64,000 bases of DNA. It comes from an uncultured Elusimicrobiaceae bacterium. GTDB taxonomy: Bacteria > Elusimicrobiota > Elusimicrobia > Elusimicrobiales > UBA9959. The stretch spans positions 50-64,049 of the forward strand of contig CAYQJX010000014.1 of assembly GCA_964417965.1 (NCBI GenBank), written 5' to 3'. The stretch's first letter is position 1, and each line of letters starts with the position of its first letter. Of the stretch, positions 2,135 through 52,286 are shown piece by piece. The notes beneath the pieces are model-generated. The model was not told the origin of the DNA and did no database searches. It saw only the letters and a program-made list of their open reading frames with translations. The translations under genes were made by a program, and so were the position numbers.

Positions 2135-2803
2135 TTAAAGCTCCATGTCGCGCCCGGAAGTCTCCGCCGAGAACTGCCGCAGGAAAGCTTCCATGAAGCG
2201 GTGGCGGCCGGCGGCGGCGCGCCGGCCTTTGGGCGTGTTCATCAGGCCCTTGAGCAGCAGCAGCTTCTCGTGGAAATGGTTTATGGTCGGGCCGGCCGAG
2301 CCGGAGTAGGCTTTTGCGGACTTGTGCAGTACGGGTTTTACCGCCGGGTCGTAGATGTCCCTGCCCTTGGCCCCGCCGTAGGCGAAAGCGCGGGCTATGC
2401 CGATGGCCCCTATGGCGTCCAGGCGGTCGGCGTCCTGCATGAGGCGGCCTTCCAGGGTGGCTATGCGGTTGCGCACCTTTGCCCCTTTAAAGGACGACTT
2501 GGCTATGATGTCGGCTACCTTCGCCACTGTGGGCGTGTCTACTCCCAGGCTCCGCAGCCAGGCCGCGGCCTTCTTCGGCCCGGCGGCTTCGTCGCCGCCG
2601 TGGAATTTCCAGTCGGCGATGTCGTGCAGCAGGGCCGCCAGCTCCACCACGTACATATCGGCCCCGGAGCCTTTGCCCAGCAGCCTGGCGTTGGCCCACA
2701 CGCGCTCGACGTGCAGCCAGTCGTGCCCGGTGGCCTCGCGGCCCAGGGTCTTGCGCGCGTAGGCGGCGGTCCTGCGGACTATCTCCCGCTGTTCTTTGTT
2801 CAT
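2135..2803 (-). CDS. HD-domain metal-dependent phosphohydrolase
   Basis: Real start is the internal ATG at 2803 (MNKEQREIV), which overlaps the upstream stop as ATGA. H...HD (LLHDIAD) and DADRLDAIG motifs. The upstream part of ORF 2135..3220 is Arg/His-rich junk overlapping the peptidase gene. Confidence 0.75.
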   Translation of the reverse strand: MNKEQREIVRRTAAYARKTLGREATGHDWLHVERVWANARLLGKGSGADMYVVELAALLHDIADWKFHGGDEAAGPKKAAAWLRSLGVDTPTVAKVADIIAKSSFKGAKVRNRIATLEGRLMQDADRLDAIGAIGIARAFAYGGAKGRDIYDPAVKPVLHKSAKAYSGSAGPTINHFHEKLLLLKGLMNTPKGRRAAAGRHRFMEAFLRQFSAETSGRDMEL

Positions 2804-8244: not shown

Positions 8245-8991
8245 TTAAAGGCGTTCCACTTCGGTCTTCAGGGCCCAGCCCTTTATCCCTTCCTTGGGCA
8301 GGCCGATCTCGTAATAGGTCTCGTCGTCGTAATCCAGGATCTTCACCAGGCGGCCCTCGGGGGCCGAGGCGTAGGTCTTAAAGCTCTCACCCGGCCCGCT
8401 CAGCATGCGCGCCCCCCCCGGCCTGGTGACCACGCCGGCGGCCGTGAAGGTGGAGGACTGCCTGGCGCCCAGCCAGGCCAGCGACAGCAGCAGCAGCGCG
8501 CCCAGCGCCAGCGAGGCCCGGCCCGCCGCCCGCCCCGGCCCGCTGCCGTCGAGCAGGAAGCCGGCGCCGCCGGTGAGGCAGGCCAGCCAGAAGAACAGGA
8601 TGGCGGCCGCCTTCAGCTCGCCGTCGGAGAACAGGTAGTAAAGCAGGTGCAGCGCCTTGGGCGCGCCTTCGGGCACCAGGTTCTGGCCGGTCTGGCGCAG
8701 GGCGAAATCCAGGTTGGCCCTGATGTCGCCCGAGCGCGGGTTGAGCGTGAAGGCCTTGGCGTAGTTGAAGACGGCCGGGCCCATGCGGCCTAGCCTGAAC
8801 TGGGCGTTGCCGGCGTTATACCAGCCCCAGGGGTTGGCCGGCTCTTTTTTTATGACCTTCCGGTAGCCTTCCAGCGCCTCTTCGTAGCGGGCGTTCTTGT
8901 AATGGTCGTTGAACTCGGCCATCTCGCTCAGGTCGTAGGCATAGGCGGCGGCCGGCAGGGCCAGCAGGCAGGCGAGCAGGAGCTTGTTCAT
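8245..8991 (-). CDS. batE: BatE-like TPR + SH3 domain protein
   Basis: Signal peptide, TPR-like N-terminus, two TM helices and a C-terminal SH3-like region (VKILDYDDETYYEI...GWAL). Last gene of the Bat-type operon, with a 4-nt overlap to batD. Confidence 0.6.
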   Translation of the reverse strand: MNKLLLACLLALPAAAYAYDLSEMAEFNDHYKNARYEEALEGYRKVIKKEPANPWGWYNAGNAQFRLGRMGPAVFNYAKAFTLNPRSGDIRANLDFALRQTGQNLVPEGAPKALHLLYYLFSDGELKAAAILFFWLACLTGGAGFLLDGSGPGRAAGRASLALGALLLLSLAWLGARQSSTFTAAGVVTRPGGARMLSGPGESFKTYASAPEGRLVKILDYDDETYYEIGLPKEGIKGWALKTEVERL

Positions 8992-10850
8992 CGGAGTTCC
9001 TTCTCCAGCAGCTCTATGAGCAGGGAATATTTTTTAGCCAGGTCGCGCGCGCCTTCGGCCTCGGCGGCGGCCGGCGAGAAATGGCGCAGCTCCAGGGCGG
9101 ACCAGAGGTCTTTGATCTCCTCCAGCGCGCCGGCGCTGGCGCGCGGGAAGCGGGCCTTTATCAGGTCCGTCGCTTTCCGGATGGTGAGCGCGCTCACCTT
9201 GACGCCGCACTTGTCGGACAGGTAGGCCATGTAGGAGTCGTAAAGGGTGGAGACGGCCTCGTTATGCTTGCCGGCCTTGATCAGGACTTCCGTCTCGTCT
9301 ATGTCCCGGGCGGCCTCGCTGCGGGCCCGGCGGAACCTGAACAGCAGCGGGTTGGCGAGCTTGAAGCGGTTCATCCTGGCCAGCAGGAACGACACGGCCA
9401 GCAGCGCCGCGGGCACGGCGTGCGACCAGTAAGGCAGCGAGTTGACCTGGCCCGCCACGAAGGGCAGGGCGTCCCCGCCCTTGCGCTCGCTGACGTAGCG
9501 GATATCCGAGTCCGACTGGGTGACGGCGGAGCCTCCGGCGTTGGCCGGGGTGAAATTGAGGCTCTTGCCGGCCGGCGCGCCCTTTTCCACTGTCAGCGTA
9601 ACCGCGTCGGTGGCCAGTTCTTTATAGGAGCCGGAGCGCGGGTCGAAGAAAGCGAATTTCACCGGCGGCACGGTCTTGCGGCCCTCGGCGCGCGGCACCA
9701 GGATATAAGTGAAGGTCTTCTTGCCGCTGATCACGTCCCCGTCCTTGCGGATGTCGAGGGAGCTCATGGTGTCGAAGACTTTAAAGTCGGCCAGGTCGGG
9801 CAGCTTGGGGGCGGTGACGGCTTTCAGGTTGCCGCTGCCGGTGATGGTGACGGAAAAATTGACGGCCTCCCCGGTGCGCGCCTCGGACCGGTCGGCCGAG
9901 GCCAGCACCGAGTAGCTGCCTACCGCCCCGCCGAAAGAGGCCGGGGCCCCGGCGGGCAGCGGCTTGATGTCGATGCTGAGGGGCTCGGTGGAAAAATCCC
10001 TGCTCTGGCCCTGCGCCCCGCTCATGGACATGAACTTCTGGAAGAAGTTGGGGTCGAACGGGTCTATCTGGTCGTCGGCCGGCACCTGGGCGATGACGGT
10101 GGCGGACTTGATCTCGGCCGGGCCCGGGGTCAGCGCGAACATGGCCGCCTTGATCTCGCTGTAGGCGTAGCGCACGCCGTTGATGTCGGTCTCGCCGTTG
10201 CGCACCGGCGGCAGGTCCTCGGAGATGAGGTTCTTGAAGGCCGGCGGCACGTACTGCGGGTTGGAGGAGAGCGGCACCGAGGTGTAGAACTTTATGCTGA
10301 CGTTTATCTGCTCGCCGGGGTAGGCCGACTTCCGGTCGGTCTCGGCCTTAATGAAGATGGGCACGCGGTCGGCGCCGCCGGCGGCCTGCCTGCGGGCGGC
10401 CGGGCGCGCGGCCTGCGCCGGGCGCGACGCGGGCTGCGCCGGAGCGGCCTGCGCGGCTTTCGCCTTGGTGACGGTCACCTGGATCTCGGACGTTACGGCC
10501 TTCTCCTTGCCGTTGAAGACGGAGATGGCGGGGATGGTCTGGGCGCCGATAAAGCGCGGGGTCAGGATAAAGGTGAAAGAGACCGAGGTGGTGATCTTGC
10601 CGTTGATGATGGAGATGCTCTGGCTGCGCCCGGAGGAATAGACGTTGAAATTCTGCATGTTCGGCAGCTTCGGTTCGGGGACGTTGGCCGAATCGCCGGA
10701 GACGGTCACGGAGAGGTAAAGGTTGCCGTCTATCTCCACCGTGTTGCGGTCGGTTTCCGCCGTTACGGCCAGGTACGCGGCCGCCGGGGCGGCCAGCAGC
10801 AGCGCCAGCGCCAGGGCGGCTAAAAATTTTGACGGGCGGGAGACTGTCAC
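8988..10850 (-). CDS. batD: BatD-like oxygen-tolerance protein
   Basis: 620 aa with a signal peptide, repeated Ig-like segments, a late TM helix and a helical tail. Position between batB/C and batE fits the known operon order. Confidence 0.65.
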   Translation of the reverse strand: MTVSRPSKFLAALALALLLAAPAAAYLAVTAETDRNTVEIDGNLYLSVTVSGDSANVPEPKLPNMQNFNVYSSGRSQSISIINGKITTSVSFTFILTPRFIGAQTIPAISVFNGKEKAVTSEIQVTVTKAKAAQAAPAQPASRPAQAARPAARRQAAGGADRVPIFIKAETDRKSAYPGEQINVSIKFYTSVPLSSNPQYVPPAFKNLISEDLPPVRNGETDINGVRYAYSEIKAAMFALTPGPAEIKSATVIAQVPADDQIDPFDPNFFQKFMSMSGAQGQSRDFSTEPLSIDIKPLPAGAPASFGGAVGSYSVLASADRSEARTGEAVNFSVTITGSGNLKAVTAPKLPDLADFKVFDTMSSLDIRKDGDVISGKKTFTYILVPRAEGRKTVPPVKFAFFDPRSGSYKELATDAVTLTVEKGAPAGKSLNFTPANAGGSAVTQSDSDIRYVSERKGGDALPFVAGQVNSLPYWSHAVPAALLAVSFLLARMNRFKLANPLLFRFRRARSEAARDIDETEVLIKAGKHNEAVSTLYDSYMAYLSDKCGVKVSALTIRKATDLIKARFPRASAGALEEIKDLWSALELRHFSPAAAEAEGARDLAKKYSLLIELLEKELR

Positions 10851-12598
10851 CAGTCCTCCAGCCGGTTCTCGGTCTGCGGCTTGCCGGGGGCGCGCTGCGC
10901 GGCGTCCTTCTGCTGCGCCGCGGCCTTTTCGCGTTCTTTCATCATTTCCAGTATCTGGCGGCTCTTCTCTTTGGCTTCGTTCTTCTTTCTTTCCTCTTCC
11001 TTCTGCTTGTCCTGCTCTTTCTTCTGGTCCTGCTGCTGCTTGTCCTTGCCTTCGCCGCCGCCTTTATCGTCCTTCTTGGGGTCCTTCTTATCCTGGCCCT
11101 TGTCGTCCTTCTTGTCCTTGTCGTCCTTGCCGCCGCCGCTGCAGGAATTCTTTTTCTTCTGCTCCAGCGCCTTCTGCAGGTTGAACTTGGCGTTCTTGTC
11201 GTCCGGGGCCAGGGCCAGGGACTTGCGGTAGCTGGCTATCGCCCCGGGCAGGTCGCCGGCCTTGAAGGCGGCGTTGCCGCGGTTATAATGCGCTCGCGCC
11301 GCCACTTTGGGCGAGGCCGCGGCCTGCTCGAAGGCTTCGCCGGCCTTGGCGTAATCTTCCAGGCGGTAGTAGGCGTCGCCCTGGTTGAAGGTCAGCCGCT
11401 TGTCGGCGGGGTCCTTCTGCGCCGCGCGGGAGTAATACTCGGAGGCCGAGGGCCAGTCGCCCTTCTTGTAGGCGGAGTTGCCCTTGCGCGCGTCGGAGGA
11501 GGCCCCCCCCGCCGCGGCCGCGGCTCCGGCGGAAAGCAGCAGCGCTCCCGCCAGGGCCCCAACGGCCTTGCCGGCTTTCCGGGAGAACCGTAATTCCAGC
11601 CTGAAGCCCTTCTCCATAAGCAGTAATTCTATCAAAAGGAGGAGCAGGGCCACAGCCAGCGGCCACTGGTAGCGGTTCTTGAAGCTGGAGCGGCCCTTGC
11701 CTTTGCTCCCCTCCAGCTCCAGCGCGCCTACGGCCCCGCGCACCTCCTCGGCGGCCGCGTCGGGCCCCGAGTAGCGCAGGAAGGCCGCCCCGGTCTTGCT
11801 GGCTATCTTGATGAGTGTATTCTCGTCGAGGCGGGTCACCACGGTCTTGCCGGCCCGGTCCTTCTTGTACTCCATGGTGTTGCCGGCGGAATCCGTCATG
11901 GGCACCAGCTCGCCGTCGGGGCTGCCGATGCCGATGGTGAAGATCTTGAGCTTCTGCTCGGCGGCGGTCTTCAGCGCGGTGTCCAGGCCGGCGGAATGGT
12001 CCTCGCCGTCGGTGACCAGCACCATCACCTTCTGCCCGCCGTAGCGCGACAGCATGTTGAGCACGGTGTCTATGGCTATGGAAAAGTCCGTGCCCTGGGA
12101 CGGCAGCATGCCCGGCGTCATGGACGAGGAGAAATAGGTGATGGCCTCCAGGTCGGTGGTGAGCGGGCACTGCACGTAGGCGTCGCCGGCGAAAGCCACC
12201 ACGCCTATGCGGTAGTCGGCGAACTTTTCGGCGATAGCGCCCAGCAGCAGGCGGGCGTTGGCCAGGCGGTTGGGCTTGAAGTCCCGGGCGCCCATGGACA
12301 GCGAGACGTCCACGGCGATGACGATGTTGCCCTTGAGGTCGGTGACGGGAGAAAGCTCCGCGCCCCATTGCGGGCCCGCGGCCGCCAGGGCGGCCAGCCC
12401 GACGGCGGTTATGAAGAGGAGGCCGCGCAGGCGGCGCCTGGCCGCGGGCGTGCCCGAAGCGAGGCGGTCGAAGGACTCGCCGAAAATAAGGCGCGCGGCG
12501 GCCTGGCGCGACTCCTCCGCCTTATAGCGGAACAGCAGCAGCAGCGCGAAGCCGGCGGCCAGCCAGACGAGCGCGAGAGGGTAGCGGAACAGTTCCAT
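10847..12598 (-). CDS. batB: BatB-BatC fusion: membrane vWA-domain protein fused to TPR repeats and a K/D/E/Q-rich tail
   Basis: A vWA MIDAS motif (VDVSLSMG...VTDGEDHS), then a TM helix, then TPR repeats (YKKGDW...YNRGNAAFKAGD), then a ~100-aa charged low-complexity tail. Confidence 0.75.
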   Translation of the reverse strand: MELFRYPLALVWLAAGFALLLLFRYKAEESRQAAARLIFGESFDRLASGTPAARRRLRGLLFITAVGLAALAAAGPQWGAELSPVTDLKGNIVIAVDVSLSMGARDFKPNRLANARLLLGAIAEKFADYRIGVVAFAGDAYVQCPLTTDLEAITYFSSSMTPGMLPSQGTDFSIAIDTVLNMLSRYGGQKVMVLVTDGEDHSAGLDTALKTAAEQKLKIFTIGIGSPDGELVPMTDSAGNTMEYKKDRAGKTVVTRLDENTLIKIASKTGAAFLRYSGPDAAAEEVRGAVGALELEGSKGKGRSSFKNRYQWPLAVALLLLLIELLLMEKGFRLELRFSRKAGKAVGALAGALLLSAGAAAAAGGASSDARKGNSAYKKGDWPSASEYYSRAAQKDPADKRLTFNQGDAYYRLEDYAKAGEAFEQAAASPKVAARAHYNRGNAAFKAGDLPGAIASYRKSLALAPDDKNAKFNLQKALEQKKKNSCSGGGKDDKDKKDDKGQDKKDPKKDDKGGGEGKDKQQQDQKKEQDKQKEEERKKNEAKEKSRQILEMMKEREKAAAQQKDAAQRAPGKPQTENRLEDW

Positions 12599-13584
12599 CA
12601 GGGCACCGTCCTGAAATAGGTCCGCTCCAGCAGGAACAGCAGCGCCAGCAGCAGCAGCGCCGGGACCAGGAAATATTCGTACTTGTCCGAGTAGTCCGTG
12701 TAGCTCTTGGCCTCGAACCTGGTGGTCTCCAGGGCGTTTATCCGGTCGTAGATCTTCTCCAGCTCCTGGTAGTTCTTCGCCCGGTAGAACTCGCCGCCGG
12801 TCAGGGCGGCTATCTCGCGCAGGGTCGGCTCGTCGAGATCCTCTTCTATGTAGACCACCGGCTGGGCCGGGTCGCCGGTAGGCACCTGCGCCTGGCCTTT
12901 GCCCGCCGTGCCGATGGTGTAGACCTTTATGTCGTAGGCGGCGGCGGTCCGGGCCGCCAGGGCCATGTCGGTCACCAGGCCCACGTTGGAGCGGCCGTCG
13001 GTGAGCAGGATGATCACCTTGCTCTTGGCCTTGCTGTCCTTCAAGTGGTTGACCGAGGTGACTATGGCGTCGCCCACGGCCGTGCCGTCGGCGCGCGTCA
13101 TGCCCATGGAGATGGTGTCTATCAGGTCGAAGACCGACTGGTAGTCTAGGGTGAGCGGGCAGGTGAGCATGGCGAGGCCGCCGAAGACGGTGACGCCGAT
13201 GCGGTCGTTCTGGCGCTGCTTGACGAAATCCGTCGCGGCCGACTTGGCGGCGTCCAGGCGGTTATAGGGGGCGAAATCCAGGGCGGCCATGCTCAGCGAG
13301 GTGTCGATGGTCAGCATGATGTCTATGCCTTCCGCCGGCGGCACCTCGCCGCGGCTGGCCTTCTGCGGCCGGGCCAGCGCCAGGATGATCAGGCAGATGG
13401 CCAGCACCCTGCCCCAGAAAGGCAGGTACCGGAAGAGCCTGGAGCGCAGGCTGTCCCTGGGCGGCATGGGGGCGGTGACGCCGGCCGAATGCAGGCGGCG
13501 GTGGCGCTGGTTCCAGGCCAGGCCCGCCAGCACGCCTGCGAGCGGCATCAGCAGCAGGATCCAGGGGTGCTTGAAAAGGTTCAC
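12598..13584 (-). CDS. batA: BatA-like membrane vWA-domain protein
   Basis: 328 aa. Two N-terminal TM helices, vWA motifs (IDTSLSMAA...LTDGRSN) and a C-terminal TM helix. Confidence 0.8.
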   Translation of the reverse strand: MNLFKHPWILLLMPLAGVLAGLAWNQRHRRLHSAGVTAPMPPRDSLRSRLFRYLPFWGRVLAICLIILALARPQKASRGEVPPAEGIDIMLTIDTSLSMAALDFAPYNRLDAAKSAATDFVKQRQNDRIGVTVFGGLAMLTCPLTLDYQSVFDLIDTISMGMTRADGTAVGDAIVTSVNHLKDSKAKSKVIILLTDGRSNVGLVTDMALAARTAAAYDIKVYTIGTAGKGQAQVPTGDPAQPVVYIEEDLDEPTLREIAALTGGEFYRAKNYQELEKIYDRINALETTRFEAKSYTDYSDKYEYFLVPALLLLALLFLLERTYFRTVP

Positions 13585-14531
13585 GGCTTGTACCCCGATT
13601 GGGACTGGGCCGTGGTCACTACCTTATCCACCACGGTCCGGGCGTTCTCGGCGGCGCGCGCGAAGTCCCCGAGCAGCTCCAGCAGGCCGGCCGCGTCGGC
13701 CGCGGCGTCGCCGGGCTGCAGCTTCGCGAACTTCACCAGGTCCGCCTTGTGCAGGAATTCCCGGGCCCGCAGCGTGGTCTTTACGTCCGTCCCGGTCCGC
13801 TTGAGCTCCCGGGTCAGGTCGGCGGTGGTCATGAGCTCGGCGTCTATGGCGAACTCTTCGCGGAGATAGAGGCGCAGCACATAGGTGAAGCCGGTGTAGA
13901 GCTCCCGCATTTTCCCGGCGGCGGCCAGCGGGCAGGCGGCGAGCCTTTCCAGGCGTTCCCTGGCGCGCTGGTAAGGCGTGCGTGGGTCTTTCCAGGCGGC
14001 GTAAGCCGCGGCGGCGGCGCCGGCGGGCCGGAAGCGGCGGTAGAGGAAGACGCCCAGCAGAATGGCCAGCGCGGCGGCCAGGAGCCAGAGCCACGGGATA
14101 TAGCGGAAGGGCGGGTAGATATCCTTTATGTCGCCTTCCGTCTTTTCGAAGATCGGTTTTATATCCACCAGGAACGGCGGACTTTTAGCCTGCAGGGAAG
14201 GCTTGTCCGGAGCGTAAAGTTCCCAGGTCACCGCCGGGAAGGTGCTCTGCCCGAGCGCGAAGGCCTTGGCCGCTATCTCGAAAGTGTCTATCTTCGCCCC
14301 CCCCGCCGCGGCGGAGTTGAGCCGGGAGAAGGAGAGCACCTCGAACTCTTCCCCGCCGGCCGCGGCGGTGTCGGGCCGGATGGAATAATGGGCGGGGTAG
14401 GTGGCCTGCAGGTGCAGCTTGAAAGGCTCGGCCAGCACGACCGCGCCTTTAGGCAGCGTCAGCTTGAAAGAGACCTCCTCCGCGGCGGCGGGGAGCGTCA
14501 GGAGCAGGAGGGCGAGGGCGGCGGTCTTCAT
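13581..14531 (-). CDS. DUF4381-type Bat-operon membrane protein with extra N-terminal secreted Ig-like domain
   Basis: Signal peptide plus a ~150-aa beta-rich domain, one TM helix (WLWLLAAALAILLGVFLY), then a helical tail ending KADLVKFAK as in DUF4381. 4-nt overlaps on both sides. Confidence 0.5.
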   Translation of the reverse strand: MKTAALALLLLTLPAAAEEVSFKLTLPKGAVVLAEPFKLHLQATYPAHYSIRPDTAAAGGEEFEVLSFSRLNSAAAGGAKIDTFEIAAKAFALGQSTFPAVTWELYAPDKPSLQAKSPPFLVDIKPIFEKTEGDIKDIYPPFRYIPWLWLLAAALAILLGVFLYRRFRPAGAAAAAYAAWKDPRTPYQRARERLERLAACPLAAAGKMRELYTGFTYVLRLYLREEFAIDAELMTTADLTRELKRTGTDVKTTLRAREFLHKADLVKFAKLQPGDAAADAAGLLELLGDFARAAENARTVVDKVVTTAQSQSGYKP

Positions 14532-15430
14532 AGCAGCTTGAACCTGCGGCGCTGGCGGAAGAATTTCTCGACCGGCCCGTGCACCGGCAGGGCGGGGTCC
14601 ACGTCTATCCAGTCGGCCCCGGCGGAGCGCAGCACCGCTTCCATCGACGCTCTACGGGCGGAGGCCGCGGCTTCGTACGCGGCGCGGAAGGCCGGGCTGC
14701 CCAGGTCGGCGGTGAAGGCCGGCCCCCCCTCCAGCTGGTCCGTGACCAGCAGGGCCCTGGCCTGCGGCAGCGACCGCTCGAAGCGGTCGGTGATCACTAC
14801 GGGGATCAGGTCGTGGCGGCGGGCGGTGAGGCGCACCTCTTTGGTGTAATCCGGCGAGATGAAATCAGAGATGAGGATGACGATGCCGCTGTGCTTCATG
14901 ACGCTGTTGGCCATACGCAGCGCCATGGCCACGTCGGTGCCGCGGCTTTTGGGCTGGTAGGCCAGCAGTTCGCGGATGATGCGCAGGCTGTGGTTACGCC
15001 CCTTGCGCGGCGGGATGTAAAGTTCGGGCTTGTCGGAGAACAGCAGCAGGCCGCTCTTGTCCGAGTTCTTGAGCGCCGAGAAGGCGAACATGGCGGCCAG
15101 CTCGGCGGCGGCCTCGCTCTTGGGCTTGGCGCCGGAGCCGAAGGCCTGCGAGGCCGAGATGTCGCACATGATCATCAGCGTCAGCTCGCGCTCCTCGATG
15201 AAGCGCTTCACGAAAGGCTTGCCCGCGCGGGCGGTGACATTCCAGTCTATCGAGCGGATGTCGTCGCCGGGCACGTACTCGCGCACTTCCGAAAACTCTA
15301 TGCCGCGCCCCTTGAACACGCTCTGGTACTGGCCGGCGAAAGTTTCGCTGACCAGGCGGCCGGTCTTGATCTCTATCTGCCGGACCTTTTTAAGCAATTC
15401 AGCTGTGTTCATCTTTTTTTTGCCCGTCAT
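14528..15430 (-). CDS. DUF58 family protein (vWA-like, MoxR partner)
   Basis: The REYVPGDDIRSIDW motif and position directly after moxR. The start could instead be the ATG at 15412. Confidence 0.8.
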   Translation of the reverse strand: MTGKKKMNTAELLKKVRQIEIKTGRLVSETFAGQYQSVFKGRGIEFSEVREYVPGDDIRSIDWNVTARAGKPFVKRFIEERELTLMIMCDISASQAFGSGAKPKSEAAAELAAMFAFSALKNSDKSGLLLFSDKPELYIPPRKGRNHSLRIIRELLAYQPKSRGTDVAMALRMANSVMKHSGIVILISDFISPDYTKEVRLTARRHDLIPVVITDRFERSLPQARALLVTDQLEGGPAFTADLGSPAFRAAYEAAASARRASMEAVLRSAGADWIDVDPALPVHGPVEKFFRQRRRFKLL

Positions 15431-15489
15431 GCCGGCGCTAAGCCGGCATCCAGCGCACTGAACTGGATCCCGGCTTTCGCCGGGATGAC
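15426..15489. repeat. Inverted pair of REP-like hairpin units
   Basis: gtcatgccggcgctaagccggcatcca (15426-15452) faces tggatcccggctttcgccgggatgac (15464-15489). The second unit recurs exactly at 62237-62262. Confidence 0.8.
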
Positions 15490-15497
15490 AGAGTGTT

Positions 15498-16487
<990 letters not shown>

Positions 16488-21018: not shown

Positions 21019-21056
21019 GAAAAAGAAAGAGCCGGGCTCGAGACCCGGCTCTTTCT
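21019..21056 (-). terminator. Rho-independent terminator after the PorV-like gene
   Basis: 13-bp stem: agaaagagccggg (21024-21036) pairs with cccggctctttct (21044-21056). A T-run follows on the minus strand. Confidence 0.7.
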
Positions 21057-21071: not shown

Positions 21072-22112
21072 CTACTTGAAGGAGATGCCCTTCATCTTGG
21101 TGAAGATCGTGCGGTCCCTGCGCTGGAAGATCGGGCTGCGGAAAGGGAAGTCGAACGTCAGCGAGATGCGGTGCGTGGTGCCCAGTTCGCCCATCGGCAC
21201 AAAAGCGTAGTCCAGGCTGAAGAAGTGCAGCGTCGCGCCCAGGCCCATGGAGAAGCCCGTCAGGCCGTCGCGCATCTGCTGCGCGTTCAGGCCGCCGCGC
21301 ACGCACAGGCGGGTGAGCTCGTTGGGGGCGGTGGCCAGCTCCGCGCCGAACAGCACGTTAGGCCGGTTGCTCTTGGGGAACACCACGTCGGCCGCCACCA
21401 GCATGTTCCGGAAAGGGTTTATCGCGCCGCCGAGCTTGAGGGTCAGCGGCAGCGGGTTGGACTCCTCGGCGTACTTCAGGCCGCCGCCCATATTGGTGGC
21501 CGTGACGGCCAGGCGGTAGGGGATGTCGCCGAAGTTGTAGGTCATGATGCCGATGTCGCCGGCGTAGGCCTTGGCCGACTCCACGATGGTGGACCGGATG
21601 TACTTGGCGGAGACGCCGATGGACACGTCTATGTCCTTGTCCGAGAACTCCAGCACGGCCTTGCTGTAGGAGAGCGTAAAGACCTGGTCGCGCGGGGTGA
21701 AGGCGCCCAGGGTGTTGCCAGAGACGTCGGTGCGGTCTATGGAGCCGATATCCGTCATCAGGATGGAGGCGGCCAGCACCGAGTCGTAATTCAGGCGGTG
21801 CGCGTAGGCGGCGTACTGGTAGCTGATGTCCTCCACGTACTGCGCGCGCATGAACACGGCTGAAAGCTTGGGGATCTGCACCAGGCCGGCGGGGTTCCAG
21901 TAGATGGCGGAGGCCTCTTCCGCGACGGCGGAATAGGCGCCGCCCATGGCCGCGGCGCGCGCGCCGACGGGCAGGTTAAGGAAGTCGGCCGTGGTGGTGC
22001 CGGCCGCCGTCTTGGCGAAATACCGGGGGTCGTCCACCGCCCGGGCGGGCAGGGCCGCGGCCAGCAGCAGGGCCGAAGTCAGAGCGAGATGTATGGCGGT
22101 GTGGTTCTTCAT
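21072..22112 (-). CDS. PorV/PorQ-like outer-membrane beta-barrel protein
   Basis: Signal peptide, then FLNLPVGARAAAMGGAYSAVAEEASAIYWNPAGL, which resembles the conserved N-terminal PorV motif. Alternating beta-strand pattern and a C-terminal aromatic residue (ISFK). Starts 2 nt after the giant gene stop. Confidence 0.5.
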   Translation of the reverse strand: MKNHTAIHLALTSALLLAAALPARAVDDPRYFAKTAAGTTTADFLNLPVGARAAAMGGAYSAVAEEASAIYWNPAGLVQIPKLSAVFMRAQYVEDISYQYAAYAHRLNYDSVLAASILMTDIGSIDRTDVSGNTLGAFTPRDQVFTLSYSKAVLEFSDKDIDVSIGVSAKYIRSTIVESAKAYAGDIGIMTYNFGDIPYRLAVTATNMGGGLKYAEESNPLPLTLKLGGAINPFRNMLVAADVVFPKSNRPNVLFGAELATAPNELTRLCVRGGLNAQQMRDGLTGFSMGLGATLHFFSLDYAFVPMGELGTTHRISLTFDFPFRSPIFQRRDRTIFTKMKGISFK

Positions 22113-22113
22113 A

Positions 22114-25100
22114 TCATCTCTCCACCGCCAGCTTCAACACTTTCTTGCCTGCGCTGGAATCTATGACCGCCAGGTAAATGCCGCTGGCGACGAGCTCGCC
22201 CGACTTGTTTACGCCCTTCCAGATGATGATGCCGGTGGTGCCGGCCGTGCCGTCCCAGACCTTCTCGCCGGAGAGGGTGTAGATGCGCACCTTGGCCAGG
22301 GCCGGGATGTTGGCGATGGTTACAAAGCCGTTGCCCCTGTTGGTGTAGAAGGGGTTTGGATACACCAGCACGTCGGCCAGGCTGGTGGAGGCGTTGCGGA
22401 TGATGAGCTGGAAGAGGCTGAAGTGGTTGAGCGTGGCGGTGATGGAGCGCGGGCCCGTATCGATGGTGGTCTCGAGCGGCAGGCACTGCCCGGACACCGG
22501 GTTGTAGCGGGCCATCACCATGCGGGTGCGGTTGTTGGCTATGGCCGCGGCCGATTCCGCGGCGTTATAGTAGAGCGTCAGGTTCACGGGGGTCTGCGGC
22601 TGCGCGCCGTCCTGCGAGTAGATGGAGACCGCTATTGGGTTGGCCCCCACCAGGTACGAGCAGGGATTGAGGTTGGAAGAAGAGATGGCTATGGCCGTGG
22701 CCGACGGGAAGGCGCCGGCCGGGATGTACATGGACACGGCCCTGCCGTCGGGCAGGGTACCGGAGATGGTGGTGGCTACCGTGGGATCGCTGGTGCCGCC
22801 GACCGAGCCGGACGGGGCGCTCTGGGGGCCGGCCAGGGTGAAGGCCGCGGGCACGGCCTGTATGCGGGCCGTCACCTTGCCGTCGCCGTTGCGCGCGGCC
22901 ACGTCGAAGTAGTAGGTGGTGCCGGTCAGCAGGCCGGTAAGCTGCACGTAATTCTGCGTGTAGAGGGCCGCGAACGGCACATAGGTGGTGACGGAGAGCG
23001 TGAAGTTCTCGGTAGTGCCGCGCACCTCGTAGATGGTGGTGGAGGAGTTGTCGGCCGTCTCCCAGCCCAGGGTAACGCCGGACATGGTGGTGGCCACCGG
23101 GACCACCGCCAGCGGGGCGCGGGCCAGCGTGTACTTGGAGCCGAGGTTCAGCGGGGTGCCTTCGGCGCCGGCGCCGTTAAGGGCGGTGATCTGCACGAAA
23201 TAGCGCTCGTTGGGCAGCAGCCCCGAGAAATTCATCGAGTCGCCGGTGGTAGTGAAAGAGGAGTACGCCACAAAGCCGCTGTGCGTGGACAGCAGCAGTT
23301 TGTAGTTGGTCCCATCCGGGTTGCCGTTGGTTATCCAGTAGGCGGTAAAACTGCCGGTACTGACGTTGGTGAATACGTTGGGGGTGGCCGGCAGCGGCTG
23401 CACCGTAAGTGAATAGATGGAGCGGGAAACGGCCACCGGGCCCCTTACCGTGCCCAGCCCGGTGAGGTCCTTGGCCGCGTTTACGGTTACGGTGTGGCTG
23501 GTGTTGGCCAGCAGCCCCTGCTGCATGTAGTAATTGTAGGTGGTACTGCCGACATACACCACGTTCTGCGTGCCGCCGGTCACGTCGAAAACCTCGTAGT
23601 AGATGCCGGAGCCGTCCACCTGGTCCCAGGACCAGCTGATGGCGGAGCTGCTGACGGCCGTGCCGGTGAGGTTGGTCACGCCGCCCACCGTCACGGTGGA
23701 GGTGGCGTTGCTGTTGAACGGCGTCTCTATGCCGGCGCCGTTGCGCGCCCTGACGCGGAAGAAGTAGAGCTGGTTGGCCGAGAGCTGGTAGATGGTGGTG
23801 AAGGTGCTGGTGTAGTTAACGCTGAAAGGCACCGGCGTGGAGATGGCCAGCGGGTCCGCGAAGTTGTCCGGGGACATGGACAGCTCGTAGGTGGTGGCCG
23901 GGGTGTTGTCGTTGGGCTCCCAGGACAGGGAAACCCGCTCGAAACTGGCCGAGGTGACGGTAAGGGTGCTGGGCGTGGCCGCGAGGGTATAATAGGTGGC
24001 CGACCGGGTGAGCGGTCCGTAGCCGCCCAGATTATAGGCCGAGATCATGATGGAGGCCTGGGTGTTGGGCCTCAGGCTGGTCTGAGTGAACTCAGCCGGG
24101 GAGACGAAGGCGACGGTGGTGATGAAGATGCTGCTGCTGGCCGAGTACACGGAGTAGCCCAATGCGCCGGTTATGTCCACGTTGCTCCAGCTCCAGGTTA
24201 TGGAACTGGTGCCGAGGATGTTCGCCGCGGGCACCGTGGTGGTGCCGGTGGGGCGCGGCACGGTTACCTGCACCGTGTGGCCGGGCGAGAACTGGCCGTT
24301 GGCGGCCACGCGCACGTGGTACCAGCCGTGGGGCAGGGCGCCTATTTCCGAAGGCGCGGTGATGGTGATGGAGGAAAGCGTGCTTTCCCAGGTGCCGGTG
24401 CTGTAGATGCCGCCGTAATGCTGGTAGATGCGGGTGGAGAGGTCAACCATGAAGCCGCTGGCGTTGTCTATCTGCTGCATGTAGACCCGGGGATTGGAAT
24501 GCGAGGAGTTCATGGGGCCGGCGCTGCCGCCGGAGGCCTCGCTGATGCCGTGGAAATTTGTAGTGTCGCTCTGCAGCGTCAGTTTGTCCCCCCGGTCGAA
24601 GAACACCGTGCCGGTGGAGACGGCGGGGTTGCGCCTGGTCTCCGCCTCAAGGCCTTCAGCGTCGGGCGAGTAGGAGAAATAGGCCAGGTCGGTGGTGTCG
24701 AGGTACTTGGAGCCGTCCCAGCCGCCTATGTTTATGATGTAGTTGTCCCGCGTGATCAGGGAGGTGTGGTGGCTGCGGGCTTCGGTGCCGCCCTGGTCCG
24801 TGAAGCTCATGAAATCGGGGTCGAAACTTTCGGAGCGGCTCTGGGCGCCGCCGGCGGTTTCGCCGCCGGTGACCATTACCTTGCCGTTAGGCAGCAGCAC
24901 GGCCCTGTGGCTGGCGCGGTTGTAGGTGAGCAGTATCGGAGCGGCCGCGGCGGTCTGCGTATAGGTCCAGGAGGCGCCGTTGTAGATCTCGCCTGTGAGC
25001 TGGGCTACCTCGTTGTTGGAGCCGCCTATGGCCAGCACGCGCCCGTCCTTGAGCAGGGTGGCGGAGTGGCTGTAGCGGGCGGTGTTCAGATTGGGGCCGG

Positions 25101-27927
25101 CCGCAAAAGACCTGCCCGTGTAACTGTAGACCTCGCTCTCGCGCACGGCGCCGTAGCCGTTAACGCCGCCCGTCATCAGCACGTTGCCGTTCTTGAGCAG
25201 GGTGGCCGTATGCTGGGCCCGCGGTTCGGTCATCCTGTAAGGGGCGGTGTTCCAGTTGGGGTGGCGCTCCCAATAGGAGGTGGAAGTTATAAATACTTCG
25301 GTGGTGGCGGAGAAGGTGCTCTGCGTGGCGCCGCCGGCCACCAGCACGTTGCCGTCGGGCATAAGGGTGGCGGTGTGGTACTGGCGCGTCTCGTACATGG
25401 GCGTGGTCAGCACCCAGCTCCTGGAAGCAGGATAATAGATCTCGGCCGTGTTGACGGCCGAGCTGGACGGGGTGACGCCGCCGGCCACCAGCACGTTGCC
25501 GTTGGGCAGCAGGGTGGCGGTGTGGCGGGTCCTGGCGAAATTCATGCTGGCGGCGGGGGTCCAGGTCCGGGTTTCGGGGTCCATCAGCTCGCAGGTGGCC
25601 AGCGGCCTGACGCCGTCGGAGCCGCCGCAGGTGAGGATCCGGCCGTCGAACAGCATGGTGCTGGTATGGAAGGCGCGCTTGGAACTCAGCTTGCCGCCTT
25701 TGGCCCAGTCGGTGCTGCCGTCGCCGGTGCCCTTGTAGACAGGGATAAAGATGGTGCCGACGTCGGTGGCGGAGAAGGTCCTGGTGAGGCAGGGGGCGGA
25801 CGGGATGTCGGGGTCCAGCACGCCGTCTTCGCAGTTGCGGCCGCCGATTATAACGCTGTCGGCGGCGGGGGTGAGGAGCGCCGTATGGTTGTAGACCGGT
25901 GTGGCGAGGGTGGGAGAGACGTCGATATTGTTGAGGGGCTTCCAGGTATTGGCGTTGGGGGTAAAGCCCAGCGCGCTGGAGAAGATCATTTCCCGGACTA
26001 CCGCGTCCGCACGGCTGAAATTTATAGCGGGCTGGGAAGCGCCGGTGAAAATCTGGTTGGCGGTATAGGTAAGCCGCAGGGTGACGCTCAACAGGCCGGT
26101 GTTAAGGGGGAGGTTGGCGCCATTAGCCTGGATCGTAACCGTTTCGCTGAGGTTGCTTATCTCTCCGGTAATGCTGGGAATGGCCACCGAGACCTGGAAA
26201 ACGCAGGTGGAATCGCCGCAGGCGCCGGTCGGGTTGTCCACTGAAATGGCGACGTTCCCGGCCCCGGCTATGGTGATGCCGTAGTTGCCCGCGGGGTCGG
26301 TTATGGTGCCGCTCAGTATGTCGGCCGTGCCCCTGATGCCGCGGTAGATCTTGGGCAGGGTGAGGGCTATGGTGCCGGTTAAAGACCCGGTAATGTCCTG
26401 GGGAGAGTTAGGGGTTATGGAAGTTGTCGGGTTTACCGCGATGAAGGTCAGTCCCCAGGCCGAGACTGTAAGGGCCGGGTTGGAACTGCCGTCCGAGCTC
26501 AGATTGGCCGGTTCGAAAACAGCGGTGCCGGTAGGGGCCGTCAGTCTGACTATACTGTCGAAATCTCCGGGCGCATGCTTGTCGTCTATCAGCGTGCCAA
26601 CGGGGTAGCCGTCCAGCGTGGCCGTGCTGTGGTTGGGCAGGAAGATATTGACGTTCTCTATGGCGATGGCCGGCTCTACCAGCGGTTCCGTAGTTCGGGC
26701 AAAATAGGCGTCGGCGTCTACCAGGCGGCCGGAAACGTCCCTGGCGAACTTGAACTCCAGCGGGAACCTGATGTTGGAATTGACGGGGTCCAGGTCCGCG
26801 GTGCCGGGGGTGGCGGAAGGAACGGTGACGATGACTACGGCCGGGTCGTCGTCCAGGTTGGGGCTGGCCTCGAATACCGTGCGCACTATGCCGCCGTAGC
26901 CGCCGTGCATGCCCCAGCCGCCGTCGGGCAGCAGCAGGGAGGAGTGTTTGTGCACCCGGTAGGGGGCCGTGCCAAAGGTGTTTTCGCCGAGCACCATGCG
27001 GCCGCCGTTCTGGTCAAAGAGCTCGGCGCCGTCCAGGTAGCCGTGGCTGCCCATGTCCTGATGGTTCCGGTCGTAGCCCCAGGCTTCCTCATCGGCGGGG
27101 GTCCAGCATTCCTCCCCCTCGTCGTTGACGCATTTGTAGGTGTTGGTGGAATTGTAGCCGCCGGCTATCATGATGATGCCGTTGTTGAGCACCGTGGCGG
27201 AATGGTCTATCCTGCCCTGCAGCAGGGCGTCCTTGGGGGACCAGGAAGAGAGCAGCACGTCGTACATCTCGTTCATCGGCTCGTAGATCCAGGCGGTGTT
27301 GGCCGCGTTGCGGCGGCGGCCGCCGGTGACGAAGACGTTGCCGGACCTGAGCAGCAGGGCGGAATGGCCCATGCGCGCGCTCACCATGGAGACGGCGTCG
27401 GCCACGGTATTGTTGACCGGGTCAAAAAGATCGCAGGTCTCGGTGATCGTTTCGGGGTTGGCGACGCTGGTCTGGCCGCCGCAGAGCAGCACTTTGCCGT
27501 TGTTGTTGCCCTTGGACAGCAGGGTGGCGGTATGTCCCCCCCTGGCCGGGGAAAGGACAGGCATGCCTGCATTGGTGCAGGTCCTGGCTATCGGGTTGCA
27601 GACCTCGATGCTGGTAAGCGGGGTGCCGGCGTTGAAGCCGCCGGCTATCAGTATGCGGCCGTCGGACATCAGCGTGGCGGTATGGGAGGACCTGGCCTGG
27701 GCCAGCGTGCCGGCCCAGTTGTCGACGGTGTTGGTCACCATGTTGTACATCTGGGCGCTGTTGGTGGGCGTATTGCCGACGCCGGTAACGCCGCCTGTTA
27801 TCAGTATATTCCCGTCGGGCAGCAGGGTTGTTGCGTGGCTGTGACGCCCCAGCATAACGGCGCCGGCGTCAGGCAATAAAACTGCCAACGCCAGCAGGGA
27901 TAAGGAAAGGACTTTTCTAAAATTCAT
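22114..27927 (-). CDS. Giant secreted Kelch-repeat / fibronectin-III surface protein with T9SS-type C-terminal domain
   Basis: 1937 aa from the ATG at 27927 (a TTG at 27951 is also possible). Signal peptide, ~14 Kelch-like units (R..HTATLLP(D/N)G.VL..GG) in two blocks, about six FN3-like modules, and a terminal ~85 aa (VYPNPF...VRIYTLSGEKV...SGIYLAV...KLAVER) resembling a Por secretion tail. Confidence 0.85.
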   Translation of the reverse strand: MNFRKVLSLSLLALAVLLPDAGAVMLGRHSHATTLLPDGNILITGGVTGVGNTPTNSAQMYNMVTNTVDNWAGTLAQARSSHTATLMSDGRILIAGGFNAGTPLTSIEVCNPIARTCTNAGMPVLSPARGGHTATLLSKGNNNGKVLLCGGQTSVANPETITETCDLFDPVNNTVADAVSMVSARMGHSALLLRSGNVFVTGGRRRNAANTAWIYEPMNEMYDVLLSSWSPKDALLQGRIDHSATVLNNGIIMIAGGYNSTNTYKCVNDEGEECWTPADEEAWGYDRNHQDMGSHGYLDGAELFDQNGGRMVLGENTFGTAPYRVHKHSSLLLPDGGWGMHGGYGGIVRTVFEASPNLDDDPAVVIVTVPSATPGTADLDPVNSNIRFPLEFKFARDVSGRLVDADAYFARTTEPLVEPAIAIENVNIFLPNHSTATLDGYPVGTLIDDKHAPGDFDSIVRLTAPTGTAVFEPANLSSDGSSNPALTVSAWGLTFIAVNPTTSITPNSPQDITGSLTGTIALTLPKIYRGIRGTADILSGTITDPAGNYGITIAGAGNVAISVDNPTGACGDSTCVFQVSVAIPSITGEISNLSETVTIQANGANLPLNTGLLSVTLRLTYTANQIFTGASQPAINFSRADAVVREMIFSSALGFTPNANTWKPLNNIDVSPTLATPVYNHTALLTPAADSVIIGGRNCEDGVLDPDIPSAPCLTRTFSATDVGTIFIPVYKGTGDGSTDWAKGGKLSSKRAFHTSTMLFDGRILTCGGSDGVRPLATCELMDPETRTWTPAASMNFARTRHTATLLPNGNVLVAGGVTPSSSAVNTAEIYYPASRSWVLTTPMYETRQYHTATLMPDGNVLVAGGATQSTFSATTEVFITSTSYWERHPNWNTAPYRMTEPRAQHTATLLKNGNVLMTGGVNGYGAVRESEVYSYTGRSFAAGPNLNTARYSHSATLLKDGRVLAIGGSNNEVAQLTGEIYNGASWTYTQTAAAAPILLTYNRASHRAVLLPNGKVMVTGGETAGGAQSRSESFDPDFMSFTDQGGTEARSHHTSLITRDNYIINIGGWDGSKYLDTTDLAYFSYSPDAEGLEAETRRNPAVSTGTVFFDRGDKLTLQSDTTNFHGISEASGGSAGPMNSSHSNPRVYMQQIDNASGFMVDLSTRIYQHYGGIYSTGTWESTLSSITITAPSEIGALPHGWYHVRVAANGQFSPGHTVQVTVPRPTGTTTVPAANILGTSSITWSWSNVDITGALGYSVYSASSSIFITTVAFVSPAEFTQTSLRPNTQASIMISAYNLGGYGPLTRSATYYTLAATPSTLTVTSASFERVSLSWEPNDNTPATTYELSMSPDNFADPLAISTPVPFSVNYTSTFTTIYQLSANQLYFFRVRARNGAGIETPFNSNATSTVTVGGVTNLTGTAVSSSAISWSWDQVDGSGIYYEVFDVTGGTQNVVYVGSTTYNYYMQQGLLANTSHTVTVNAAKDLTGLGTVRGPVAVSRSIYSLTVQPLPATPNVFTNVSTGSFTAYWITNGNPDGTNYKLLLSTHSGFVAYSSFTTTGDSMNFSGLLPNERYFVQITALNGAGAEGTPLNLGSKYTLARAPLAVVPVATTMSGVTLGWETADNSSTTIYEVRGTTENFTLSVTTYVPFAALYTQNYVQLTGLLTGTTYYFDVAARNGDGKVTARIQAVPAAFTLAGPQSAPSGSVGGTSDPTVATTISGTLPDGRAVSMYIPAGAFPSATAIAISSSNLNPCSYLVGANPIAVSIYSQDGAQPQTPVNLTLYYNAAESAAAIANNRTRMVMARYNPVSGQCLPLETTIDTGPRSITATLNHFSLFQLIIRNASTSLADVLVYPNPFYTNRGNGFVTIANIPALAKVRIYTLSGEKVWDGTAGTTGIIIWKGVNKSGELVASGIYLAVIDSSAGKKVLKLAVER

Positions 27928-27991: not shown

Positions 27992-28483
27992 CTAGTTTAC
28001 ATCCACCAGCGAGTCGCCGGTAGGGGCTTTGGGCTTGCCGGGGGCCAACTTCTTGTTGCCGTCCACCGTGAAGTGGTAGGGATAGGTGCCGGGCAGGATA
28101 TAGATCTCGGCCTTCCAGACCCCGTTCTTCTTGGCCATCTTGACGTTCTTCCAGGAGGTGAAGCTGCCGGCTATGGAGACCGACTTGGCCTTGGCGTCCT
28201 TGTATTCGAAAACGGTCTTTAAGGCGTGCGCCTTTTCGGCGGCAGGGGTCTGGGCGGGGTTCTGGTCCGCGGCCTTCTCTTCGGAGACCTTGGCCTCTTC
28301 TTTGGCCGCGGGGGTTGTCTCTTCCTCGTCCTCCTGCGAGACGGGCAGGGGCACGGGGCGCACTTCTATGGTGTCGCCGGAGAAGTGCAGCGAGACGCGT
28401 TCGTAAATGGCGTAGCCGGCGTAGGACATTACGGCCAGGCAGACTACCGCCGCCGCCGCCCAGAAAGTCTTGGATTTTGTCAT
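27992..28483 (-). CDS. Membrane-anchored protein with CBM48/AMPK-beta-like glycogen-binding domain
   Basis: N-terminal TM helix, an acidic linker, then VFEYKDAKAKSVSIAGSFTSW...WKAEIYILPGTYPYHFTVDG, matching the E-set/CBM48 pattern. Confidence 0.55.
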   Translation of the reverse strand: MTKSKTFWAAAAVVCLAVMSYAGYAIYERVSLHFSGDTIEVRPVPLPVSQEDEEETTPAAKEEAKVSEEKAADQNPAQTPAAEKAHALKTVFEYKDAKAKSVSIAGSFTSWKNVKMAKKNGVWKAEIYILPGTYPYHFTVDGNKKLAPGKPKAPTGDSLVDVN

Positions 28484-28522
28484 GTTTTAATGAAAGGTGT
28501 GTCGATACTATTCTTGATCTAA

Positions 28523-28700
28523 AGCGGGTGAAATGAAATTCCCATCACCCAAATACTAACCCAGTAAATTCTGAGCGGGTGACATGCGAGCGTCAGCGAG
28601 CTCTCCCCATAAGGAATATTCCCATCACCCAAGTCTAAATCAGAGCGGGTGACAGCGAGCGTCAGCGAGCTTCCCCTATAAGGAACTATTCCCATCACCA
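28523..28700. repeat. Tandem array of three tRNA-3'-end-derived units (50- and 70-bp periods)
   Basis: Units start at 28523, 28573 and 28643. Each begins (g)agcgggtga and ends attcccatcacc(c). Both ends match the acceptor/T-arm of the adjacent tRNA-Gly, in direct and inverted sense respectively. Confidence 0.75.
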
Positions 28701-28763: not shown

Positions 28764-28837
28764 TGGAGCGGGTGATGGGAATCGAACCCACGTCTAATGC
28801 TTGGGAAGCACTCGTTCTACCATTGAACTACACCCGC
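28764..28837 (-). tRNA. tRNA-Gly (anticodon CCC), CCA encoded
   Basis: The 74-nt minus-strand sequence GCGGGTG-TA-GTTC-AATGGTA-GAAC-G-AGTGC-TTCCCAA-GCATT-AGAC-GTGGG-TTCGATT-CCCAT-CACCCGC-T-CCA folds as a cloverleaf. Confidence 0.9.
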
Positions 28838-48782: not shown

Positions 48783-48816
48783 CGCGACAGATCTTACGAA
48801 AACTGGAGAAAACAAT

Positions 48817-49941: not shown

Positions 49942-49962
49942 GCAGCGCGGCCGGCGGCCGTT

Positions 49963-50010
49963 TATCGGTAACCAGCCGGGAGCTTTAAGCCCCTGAACTG
50001 GTTACCGATA
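49963..50010 (+). other. Intra-operon hairpin (13-bp stem, 22-nt loop)
   Basis: tatcggtaaccag (49963-49975) pairs with ctggttaccgata (49998-50010). No T-run follows. Confidence 0.4.
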
Positions 50011-52271: not shown

Positions 52272-52286
52272 CGGGAGGATAAGCCA

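Follow-up and report, generated by a model that had tools for sequence, protein, structure and literature searches.

We analyzed a 64,000-nt stretch of DNA (hereafter the window) from an uncultured Elusimicrobiaceae bacterium, in which three consecutive genes encode a small CBM48-like protein, a giant exported protein of Kelch and FN3 domains that ends in a type A C-terminal domain (CTD) of type IX secretion systems (T9SS), and a predicted outer-membrane barrel of the PorV/PorQ family. Our best reading from sequence is that these genes would constitute a conserved three-gene surface-display module of Elusimicrobiota, whose giant protein and barrel are closest to the PorZ-PorQ pair. The genes of the module lie on the minus strand, and the coordinates of its features, as all those below, are positions in the window:

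27992..28483, minus strand: gene of the CBM48-like small protein (163 aa), the first conserved gene of the module
22114..27927, minus strand: gene of the giant exported protein (1,937 aa; stop codon included)
27859..27927, minus strand: predicted Sec signal peptide of the giant protein, residues 1-23 (MNFRKVLSLSLLALAVLLPDAGA), read by eye
27145..27852, minus strand: Kelch beta-propeller block 1, residues 26-261 (Pfam Beta-prop_ATRN-LZTR1, Kelch_3)
25681..27144, minus strand: least conserved stretch, residues 262-749, comprising the last part of propeller 1 and a beta-rich region without family match
24856..25680, minus strand: Kelch beta-propeller block 2, residues 750-1024 (Pfam Kelch_1/4/6 and Kelch_KLHDC2 over 754-969)
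22828..24207, minus strand: run of about five FN3 modules, a putative stalk, residues 1241-1700 (Pfam fn3)
22117..22365, minus strand: T9SS type A CTD, residues 1855-1937, ending ...SGIYLAVIDSSAGKKVLKLAVER (TIGR04183)
21072..22112, minus strand: PorV/PorQ-family outer-membrane barrel, 346 aa, with signal peptide and conserved basic C-terminal tail (NF033709)
21020..21056 (about), minus strand: intrinsic terminator closing the operon, a stem-loop with T-run

The giant open reading frame (ORF), of 1,937 aa, runs from the ATG at 27927 to the TGA at 22116-22114. Its open frame extends upstream to a TTG at 27951, but we took the ATG as the start because orthologue alignments begin there. The barrel ORF, of 346 aa, starts with an ATG at 22112 and stops at 21074-21072, so that stop and start codons are 1 nt apart at the junction (GAGAGA-TGA-t-ATG), and a GGAG located 7-10 nt 5' of the barrel ATG falls within the final codons of the giant gene. 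The small-protein gene, which is on the same strand, ends 64 nt 5' of the giant gene. GC content at third codon positions (GC3) is 0.86 in the giant gene and 0.93 in the barrel gene, in a genome of 63% GC; this codon-position bias indicates that both ORFs are real genes. Behind the pair, the sequence AGAGCCGGG-tctcga-CCCGGCTCT forms a GC-rich hairpin followed by a T-run. The initial annotation, made from sequence alone, had placed a barrel gene directly behind the giant gene and a terminator behind both, and both statements hold, with a spacer of 1 nt and with hairpin and T-run at ~21056-21020.

Pfam likewise upheld the architecture first proposed for the 1937-aa protein, that is, two Kelch blocks and a run of FN3-like modules preceded by a signal peptide, the latter read by eye; predicted cleavage, marked by the slash, is at MNFRKVLSLSLLALAVLLPDAGA/V in the giant protein and MKNHTAIHLALTSALLLAAALPARA/V in the barrel. 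The fn3 model scored 97.9 bits over four stretches between residues 1318 and 1681, with a fifth, weaker stretch at residues 1241-1309, and Kelch block 2 matched Kelch domains in the Protein Data Bank (PDB) with E-values down to 2e-23. Residues 262-749, in contrast, yielded no Pfam match at E<0.05; column identity across 45 orthologues is 0.22-0.53 in this stretch, which is also the most divergent one against the closest genome. As to a possible radical copper oxidase in the manner of galactose oxidase or GlxA, a GlxA match of 67 bits (cut-off 800) and a Glyoxal_oxid_N match look like a reflection of Kelch-blade similarity, the GO-like E-set scoring only 14-16 bits. We also considered the giant protein as a disguised PorU and rejected this candidate: its body had neither a C25 nor a PorU match in Pfam/NCBIfam scans, and the PorU model (NF033707) matched the tail only, at the CTD end of the model (20.8 bits).

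The tail itself was recognized by TIGR04183 (Por_Secre_tail) at residues 1855-1935 of 1937, above the cut-off of 23 bits both in the full-length protein (26.8 bits) and, more clearly, when isolated (34.0 bits). Matches to the CTD part of the PorZ model reached 50-58 bits (E 1e-13 to 8e-16). As membership in type A entails, the domain occupies the extreme C-terminus of a protein with an N-terminal signal peptide (by eye). An AlphaFold2 (AF2) model of the last 127 residues, built on a 15-sequence alignment, had a mean confidence (pLDDT) of 78.7, rising to ~90 within the CTD, a beta-sandwich. Foldseek comparison of this model with the PDB retrieved only PorZ, the NucA CTD and PorU (6za2) at E<=1e-3, all of them T9SS CTDs; the match to PorZ (5m11) had an E-value of 4e-7 at 25% identity, and that to the translocon-bound NucA CTD (8glk_D) a target TM-score of 0.74. 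The RgpB and RemA CTDs came next in the ranking, and generic Ig domains lower. The assignment of the tail as a T9SS type A CTD is thus borne out by TIGR04183 and by fold, the significant fold matches being T9SS CTDs throughout rather than generic Ig folds. Type A CTDs touch the extracellular loops of PorV mainly via one C-terminal lysine, the sole conserved contact (PMC10994853). Three lysines of the tail, K1928, K1929 and K1932, do not vary among 15 sequences and recur in the divergent lineage described below; one of them may be the counterpart of RemZ K1110.

The barrel matched the PorV/PorQ family model NF033709 over its entire length (positions 1-326 of 326; 167.5 bits, cut-off 90) and the Pfam PorV model PF19572 with 35.6 bits (gathering threshold, GA, 27). 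A profile of 14 orthologues found a sole meaningful match in the PDB, the PorV of Flavobacterium johnsoniae (6h3i_F, E 1.2e-4), and this alignment takes in the N-terminal motif that the initial annotation had flagged as PorV/PorQ-like. These results identify the barrel as a PorV/PorQ-family member and not an unrelated porin; among the equivalog models, PorQ scored best. Behind the last beta-strand, we noted a conserved basic extension of ~25 residues (PFRSPIFQRRDRTIFTKMKGISFK; residues 322-346, window 21072-21150), which is shorter in the divergent lineage (LPAK.SRR.RER). By the usual topology of such barrels this tail would face the periplasm, and it may therefore be a partner-binding site.

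We then addressed how widely the pair is conserved. A protein of 'Elusimicrobia bacterium GWB2_63_22' shares 99% identity with the barrel, and the named relatives among 120 listed matches are all Elusimicrobia. The impression that this genome does not look like Bacteroidota proved right: the host belongs to Elusimicrobiota, outside the Fibrobacteres-Chlorobi-Bacteroidetes (FCB) superphylum to which T9SS is ascribed, and its closest relatives are all metagenome-assembled genomes (MAGs) of Elusimicrobia/Elusimicrobiales. A one-genome-per-species scan recovered 66 loci, 64 of them from Elusimicrobia, with barrel identities of 42-99% (nearly all at least 57%); the module is present, among others, in the Elusimicrobium sp. 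MAGs L047 and L059. Every locus with sufficient upstream DNA has an ORF of ~1,800-2,150 aa before the barrel with the same tail (...GSGIYL..V.DS..GKK..K.AVER). At most of the ~60 Elusimicrobia loci the giant and barrel genes overlap by up to 4 nt or lie up to 10 nt apart; as judged from these junctions, the pair is translationally coupled in ~60 Elusimicrobia species.

Giant-protein orthologues from 45 Elusimicrobia loci are collinear from end to end at 29-88% identity and differ little in length, which speaks against an adhesin with variable repeats. Of all segments of the protein the CTD is best conserved, with column identities of 0.71-0.79 compared with 0.22-0.65 elsewhere. A similar picture emerged from the closest genome, in which DNA identity is 93-95% for the flanks and 90.6% for the giant and barrel genes together; at the protein level, identity is 74-89% in the N-terminal half of the giant protein, 84-100% in its C-terminal half, 100% in the CTD and 99% in the barrel. 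Such a gradient fits a fast-changing end that would face outward and a constrained end that would serve as anchor. In the main lineage the gene order is folE, small gene, giant, barrel, speD, speE, dksA.

Beyond these orthologues, scores in an exhaustive barrel profile search fell sharply, from 390-496 bits to at most 281 bits, and the next group (representative P0139, 39% identity) again came from Elusimicrobia. In this second, divergent lineage, loci L070, L072, L074 and L075 display the same order of CBM48-like, giant and barrel genes. Their small proteins (223-254 aa) combine a single transmembrane helix and an extended Pro-rich linker with a CBM48/AMPK1_CBM-like domain, which Pfam missed in L074; their giant Kelch/FN3 proteins have 1,805-2,146 aa, and those of L070 and L072 are collinear with, and 32-34% identical to, the window protein, with CTDs scoring 94-101 bits against a hidden Markov model (HMM) of the CTD that we built locally. 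The barrel and giant genes overlap by 4 nt in this lineage. The upstream neighbors differ (TAL/PGI, HAD hydrolase), and the genes directly after the barrel encode a coiled-coil protein, at most of the loci an ADH, and a PMT_2 glycosyltransferase; farther downstream, RDD, HEAT and MoxR genes occur in both lineages. The three genes stay together despite different upstream and directly downstream genes, and we therefore take the three genes as the unit that has been kept through rearrangement in deep branches of the phylum. The dedicated cargo-barrel pair that had been proposed is accordingly borne out, being coupled in ~60 species and persisting in a second deep lineage with changed neighbors. 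The protein right behind the divergent-lineage barrel has 309-547 aa (L070 10984-11913; L072 11007-12650; L074 11174-12649; L075 11046-12560) and, in L070 and L072, a Pro-rich N-terminus followed by coiled-coil; it had no Pfam match, and the window holds no counterpart of it behind the barrel.

The window's small protein (163 aa) is composed of an N-terminal transmembrane helix, an acidic/Pro-rich linker and an AMPK1_CBM/CBM48-like beta-sandwich at residues 89-153 (Pfam AMPK1_CBM, 46.1 bits), and matched no T9SS, motor or secretion family. A homologue directly precedes the giant gene in 44 Elusimicrobia loci as well as in L070, L072, L074 and L075 of the divergent lineage; this conserved adjacency makes it a candidate third component of the module. 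Three direct repeats of ~60-80 nt each lie at 28520-28700, between tRNA-Gly(CCC) (28764-28837) and the CBM48-like gene. The repeat unit reads GGGTGATGGGAATA..TTCCTTAT.GGGGA.GCTCGCTGACGCTCGC.TGTCACCCGCTC on the minus strand, with inverted ends GGGTGA...TCACCC, and its position just upstream of the module suggests that the repeats could be regulatory or a small mobile repeat.

How does the pair compare with known CTD-barrel systems? PorU and PorZ retain their CTDs. In the PorZ-PorQ pair of the Porphyromonas gingivalis attachment complex we found the closest likeness: PorZ is the best match of the tail in HMM score (50-58 bits) as well as in fold (5m11), and PorQ the top equivalog of the barrel (107.8 bits). 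PorZ also combines two beta-propellers with a CTD and sits with PorQ in the attachment complex (PDB 5m11; PMC12365241), whose members are PorQ, PorU, PorV and PorZ (PMC12365241). On the other hand, only the CTD part of the PorZ model (NF052228) aligns to the giant protein (positions 664-750 of 757; 50.3 bits, cut-off 260), which is 2.5 times longer than PorZ, has Kelch-type propellers and carries an FN3 stalk. Moreover, the giant and barrel genes are adjacent and translationally coupled, unlike PorZ-PorQ, the barrel scores under the PorQ cut-off of 220, and the host is an Elusimicrobiota bacterium with no PorU, PorV or Sov found in the DNA covered. The initial annotation had cast the two proteins as a cargo and its PorV-like shuttle. 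The CTD cargo and the family barrel stand, but the pair is closer to PorZ-PorQ than to a generic cargo plus PorV; with PorQ as the best equivalog, and PorZ, with its two propellers and retained CTD, as the best tail match, a permanent anchor is at least as likely as a shuttle.

Other arrangements share part of this design. The PorU-PorV operon likewise has the gene of a large CTD-bearing protein followed by that of a PorV-family barrel; the PorU CTD is in the top three fold matches, and F. johnsoniae PorV is the match of the barrel in the PDB. The body of the giant protein, however, is devoid of PorU or C25 peptidase matches, and the barrel scores 77.7 bits against a PorV cut-off of 250. Type B cargoes remain on dedicated PorP/SprF carriers encoded beside them, and such gene pairs are established (PMC12618676). 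Thus in SprB-SprF of F. johnsoniae, too, a large surface protein adjoins its own carrier, which anchors it (PMC12618676; PMC10994853), but here the CTD is type A (TIGR04183) and not type B (TIGR04131), the barrel belongs to PorV/PorQ and not PorP/SprF, and systems of the SprB-SprF type need SprA and the GldLM motor. In two-partner secretion (TPS; T5bSS, TpsA-TpsB), a very large exoprotein gene adjoins that of a dedicated outer-membrane barrel, which is an analogy only: the targeting domain is C-terminal in the giant protein rather than an N-terminal TPS domain, and neither Pfam nor NCBIfam matched an Omp85/POTRA or an N-terminal TPS domain in the giant protein or the barrel.

The species scan also recovered two loci from outside Elusimicrobia, L068 (uncultured bacterium) and L069 (Candidatus Edwardsbacteria), where three consecutive CTD-bearing ORFs precede a related barrel. 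In L068, the one that was annotated, the barrel is nearest to PorV2 and the adjoining upstream ORF is a PorU-like sortase with its own CTD (NF033707, 317.6 bits, E 1.5e-94). The order 'CTD protein, then PorV-family barrel' therefore occurs with a T9SS-type sortase too, and in Elusimicrobia a Kelch/FN3 protein without peptidase match fills the slot held by the sortase in L068. The L068/L069 arrangement may be NCBI's putative 'PorU2/PorV2' sorting system. Genes for heptose and lipopolysaccharide (LPS)-core glycosyltransferases lie behind the L068 barrel.

From these sequence comparisons we give a probability of roughly 60% to the barrel being a dedicated outer-membrane anchor or carrier that would hold the giant protein through an uncleaved CTD. 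In this mechanism, the giant protein would leave the cytoplasm by Sec and reach the cell surface by some further route, where its retained type A CTD would bind non-covalently to the extracellular loops of a cognate PorV/PorQ-family barrel supplied by the next, translationally coupled gene. Such coupling favors equal amounts of the two proteins. The FN3 run beside the CTD would act as a stalk keeping the two Kelch propellers, probably the ligand- or glycan-binding parts, off the membrane. The pair would work as PorZ may on PorQ, PorU on PorV, or type B adhesins on PorP/SprF, that is, with one carrier or anchor per cargo. The small protein, predicted to be anchored in the inner membrane and provided with the Pro-rich linker and the CBM48-like domain, would be a candidate third component.

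Several observations weigh against this anchoring by a dedicated barrel. The Pfam CTD models scored the tail below their GA of 27 (CHU_C 21.2 bits, Por_Secre_tail PF18962 15.5 bits), and the barrel failed the equivalog cut-offs for PorQ (NF033711, 107.8 bits of 220), PorV2 (NF052325, 80.9 of 325) and PorV (NF033710, 77.7 of 250); with a full family match, it is therefore a family member, but none of the named T9SS components is its orthologue. At E<=1e-3 the PorV/PorQ family comprises as many as 16,821 representative clusters, so membership alone does not imply T9SS function; the generic family model matched 40 of 40 sampled relatives, among which the best PorQ E-value was 5.8e-41. The FadL-like architecture of 14 strands and the loops are presumptive for the barrel, whose AF2 model (14-sequence alignment) was unusable at a pLDDT of 44.7, and the binding of CTD to barrel is itself a putative step. 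The giant protein, at ~200 kDa, would in addition need a route across the outer membrane. Finally, the broadly syntenic neighborhood in the main lineage renders adjacency weaker evidence than the number of loci suggests, as it may have been inherited passively.

A different explanation, which we regard as unlikely, sees in the pair one exposed piece of a T9SS, whole or reduced, whose other genes would lie elsewhere in Elusimicrobia genomes and would include those of a SprA/Sov-like translocon, a GldLM-type motor and perhaps PorU. In that case the barrel would be a carrier of the ordinary kind, and T9SS would range beyond the FCB superphylum. Indeed, all studied type A CTDs and PorV/PorQ barrels work with SprA (PMC10994853), the fold of the CTD resembles a translocon-bound one (8glk_D), and the genome was covered only in part, since Pfam/NCBIfam annotation comprised the window (1-64000) plus 10 kb beyond (~74 kb of the 126-kb metagenome contig, in which the window occupies 134-64133). 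These ~74 kb nevertheless revealed no SprA/Sov, PorK/L/M/N, PorU, PorT or PorW, and the annotated flanks of L070-L075 none of SprA, PorK/L/M/N, PorU, PorT and PorW, which speaks against such a system. TXSScan, which requires at least 7 of 10 components for a T9SS call, found T9SS in Bacteroidetes only among 1,528 diderm genomes and scored zero for every secretion system, T9SS included, in the complete genome of Elusimicrobium minutum Pei191 (PMC4793230, Table S3), a strain of the genus whose MAGs L047 and L059 have the module; a 2024 review placed no T9SS genes outside the FCB phyla (PMC11285876). The count of further CTD-bearing proteins that the initial annotation had proposed also speaks against it: when the last 120 aa encoded by each of 52 window genes were compared with TIGR04183, no second one came up, the giant protein being the sole carrier in the window, and our local, narrow CTD HMM detected nothing beyond giant-protein orthologues in 1.1 Mb of Elusimicrobia DNA. 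A large-database search with the last 127 aa yielded 14 orthologue fragments only, and says little on other CTD proteins of the phylum. The idea of a minimal or divergent route, raised at the outset, is consistent with the core genes unfound in ~74 kb and with the TXSScan null for E. minutum.

Taken to its end, that idea would have the barrel, alone or with the small Pro-rich protein, move the CTD-tagged protein across the outer membrane as well as anchor it, following the logic of two-partner secretion, although the signal would be C-terminal and the barrel of FadL/PorV type. The maintenance of a giant exoprotein, a barrel and a periplasm-spanning protein as a module, the lack of any recognized secretion system in E. 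minutum by TXSScan and the conserved basic tail of the barrel, which could contact a periplasmic partner, all fit such self-contained export. We nevertheless hold it to be quite improbable: PorV is published as a small carrier barrel at the SprA pore, no member of the family is known as a polypeptide conduit, the barrel has no POTRA or Omp85 features, and the small protein matches no motor or secretion family. The broader proposition of a stand-alone three-gene route for export and display of one giant surface protein, with no SprA translocon and no GldLM motor, is doubtful; if true, it would represent either the ancestral core that gave rise to T9SS carrier-signal recognition or a minimal offshoot of it. 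Least probable is that adjacency means nothing. In this case the barrel would take up hydrophobic compounds as a FadL-like channel, and the giant protein, a Kelch protein that is periplasmic or secreted, would be unrelated to it and have a tail that is only an Ig-like domain. The PorV family does lie within the FadL-like barrels, weak Pfam matches of the barrel to Toluene_X (14.2 bits) and the Treponema family UPF0164 (20 bits) were recorded, and synteny in the main lineage would be compatible with chance neighbors. This account is hard to reconcile with stop and start codons 1 nt apart or overlapping by 4 nt in most loci, with the survival of the pair where upstream and directly downstream genes differ, with a tail that is the most conserved part of the protein and whose significant fold matches are confined to T9SS CTDs, and with the recurrence of the order CTD protein, then barrel in L068 next to a PorU-like protein.

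In the literature, T9SS, the CTD signal and PorV-type carriers are treated as confined to FCB (PMC11285876, PMC4793230), whereas the CTD-carrier pair described here forms a conserved module, seemingly in single copy, throughout a phylum outside FCB whose only complete genome from a cultured member has no known secretion system according to TXSScan. Should Elusimicrobia genomes encode a translocon at another site, T9SS would gain in range; should they lack one, CTD-to-barrel recognition can work outside T9SS, which would bear on the evolution of that system and offer a very small one for studying CTD-carrier binding. The domain names are already known, as the NCBI pipeline labels the two proteins in Elusimicrobia MAGs 'T9SS type A sorting domain-containing protein' and 'PorV/PorQ family protein'. 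New, with no paper on them in the literature searched, are the conserved three-gene module, its phylum-wide spread outside FCB, the likeness to PorZ-PorQ and the apparent lack of a T9SS core. The same searches returned no relevant paper connecting Elusimicrobia with T9SS or type IX secretion and none on their cell surface, of which the giant protein is likely a major component; a paper on groundwater Elusimicrobia does not mention secretion, outer membrane or cell surface.

Elsewhere in the window, the plus strand at 46989-57013 carries a sparsely annotated cluster that comprises a MutL-like PF13941 protein (598 aa), a GT2 glycosyltransferase, a DUF6754 protein and three small unannotated genes, together with 375-aa and 744-aa proteins that had no Pfam or NCBIfam match. 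On the minus strand, 2803-4599 encodes a 598-aa protein with PDZ and S41 peptidase domains, probably the origin of a strong CPAF-like match (E 1e-43) that C-terminal segments gave in NCBIfam. A Bat-like aerotolerance operon (MoxR ATPase, DUF58, VWA/BatA, VWA-TPR, BatD, TPR) occupies 8245-16487, also on the minus strand, and HEAT and MoxR genes are likewise found downstream of the module in L074 and L075 of the divergent lineage. Past the window end (L003 1-709, record ~72.9-73.6 kb) lies the end of a gene that encodes a polyketide synthase of 2,907 aa; next come a phosphopantetheinyl transferase gene and a membrane-bound NADH-dehydrogenase/Mbh-like cluster that reaches the window end.

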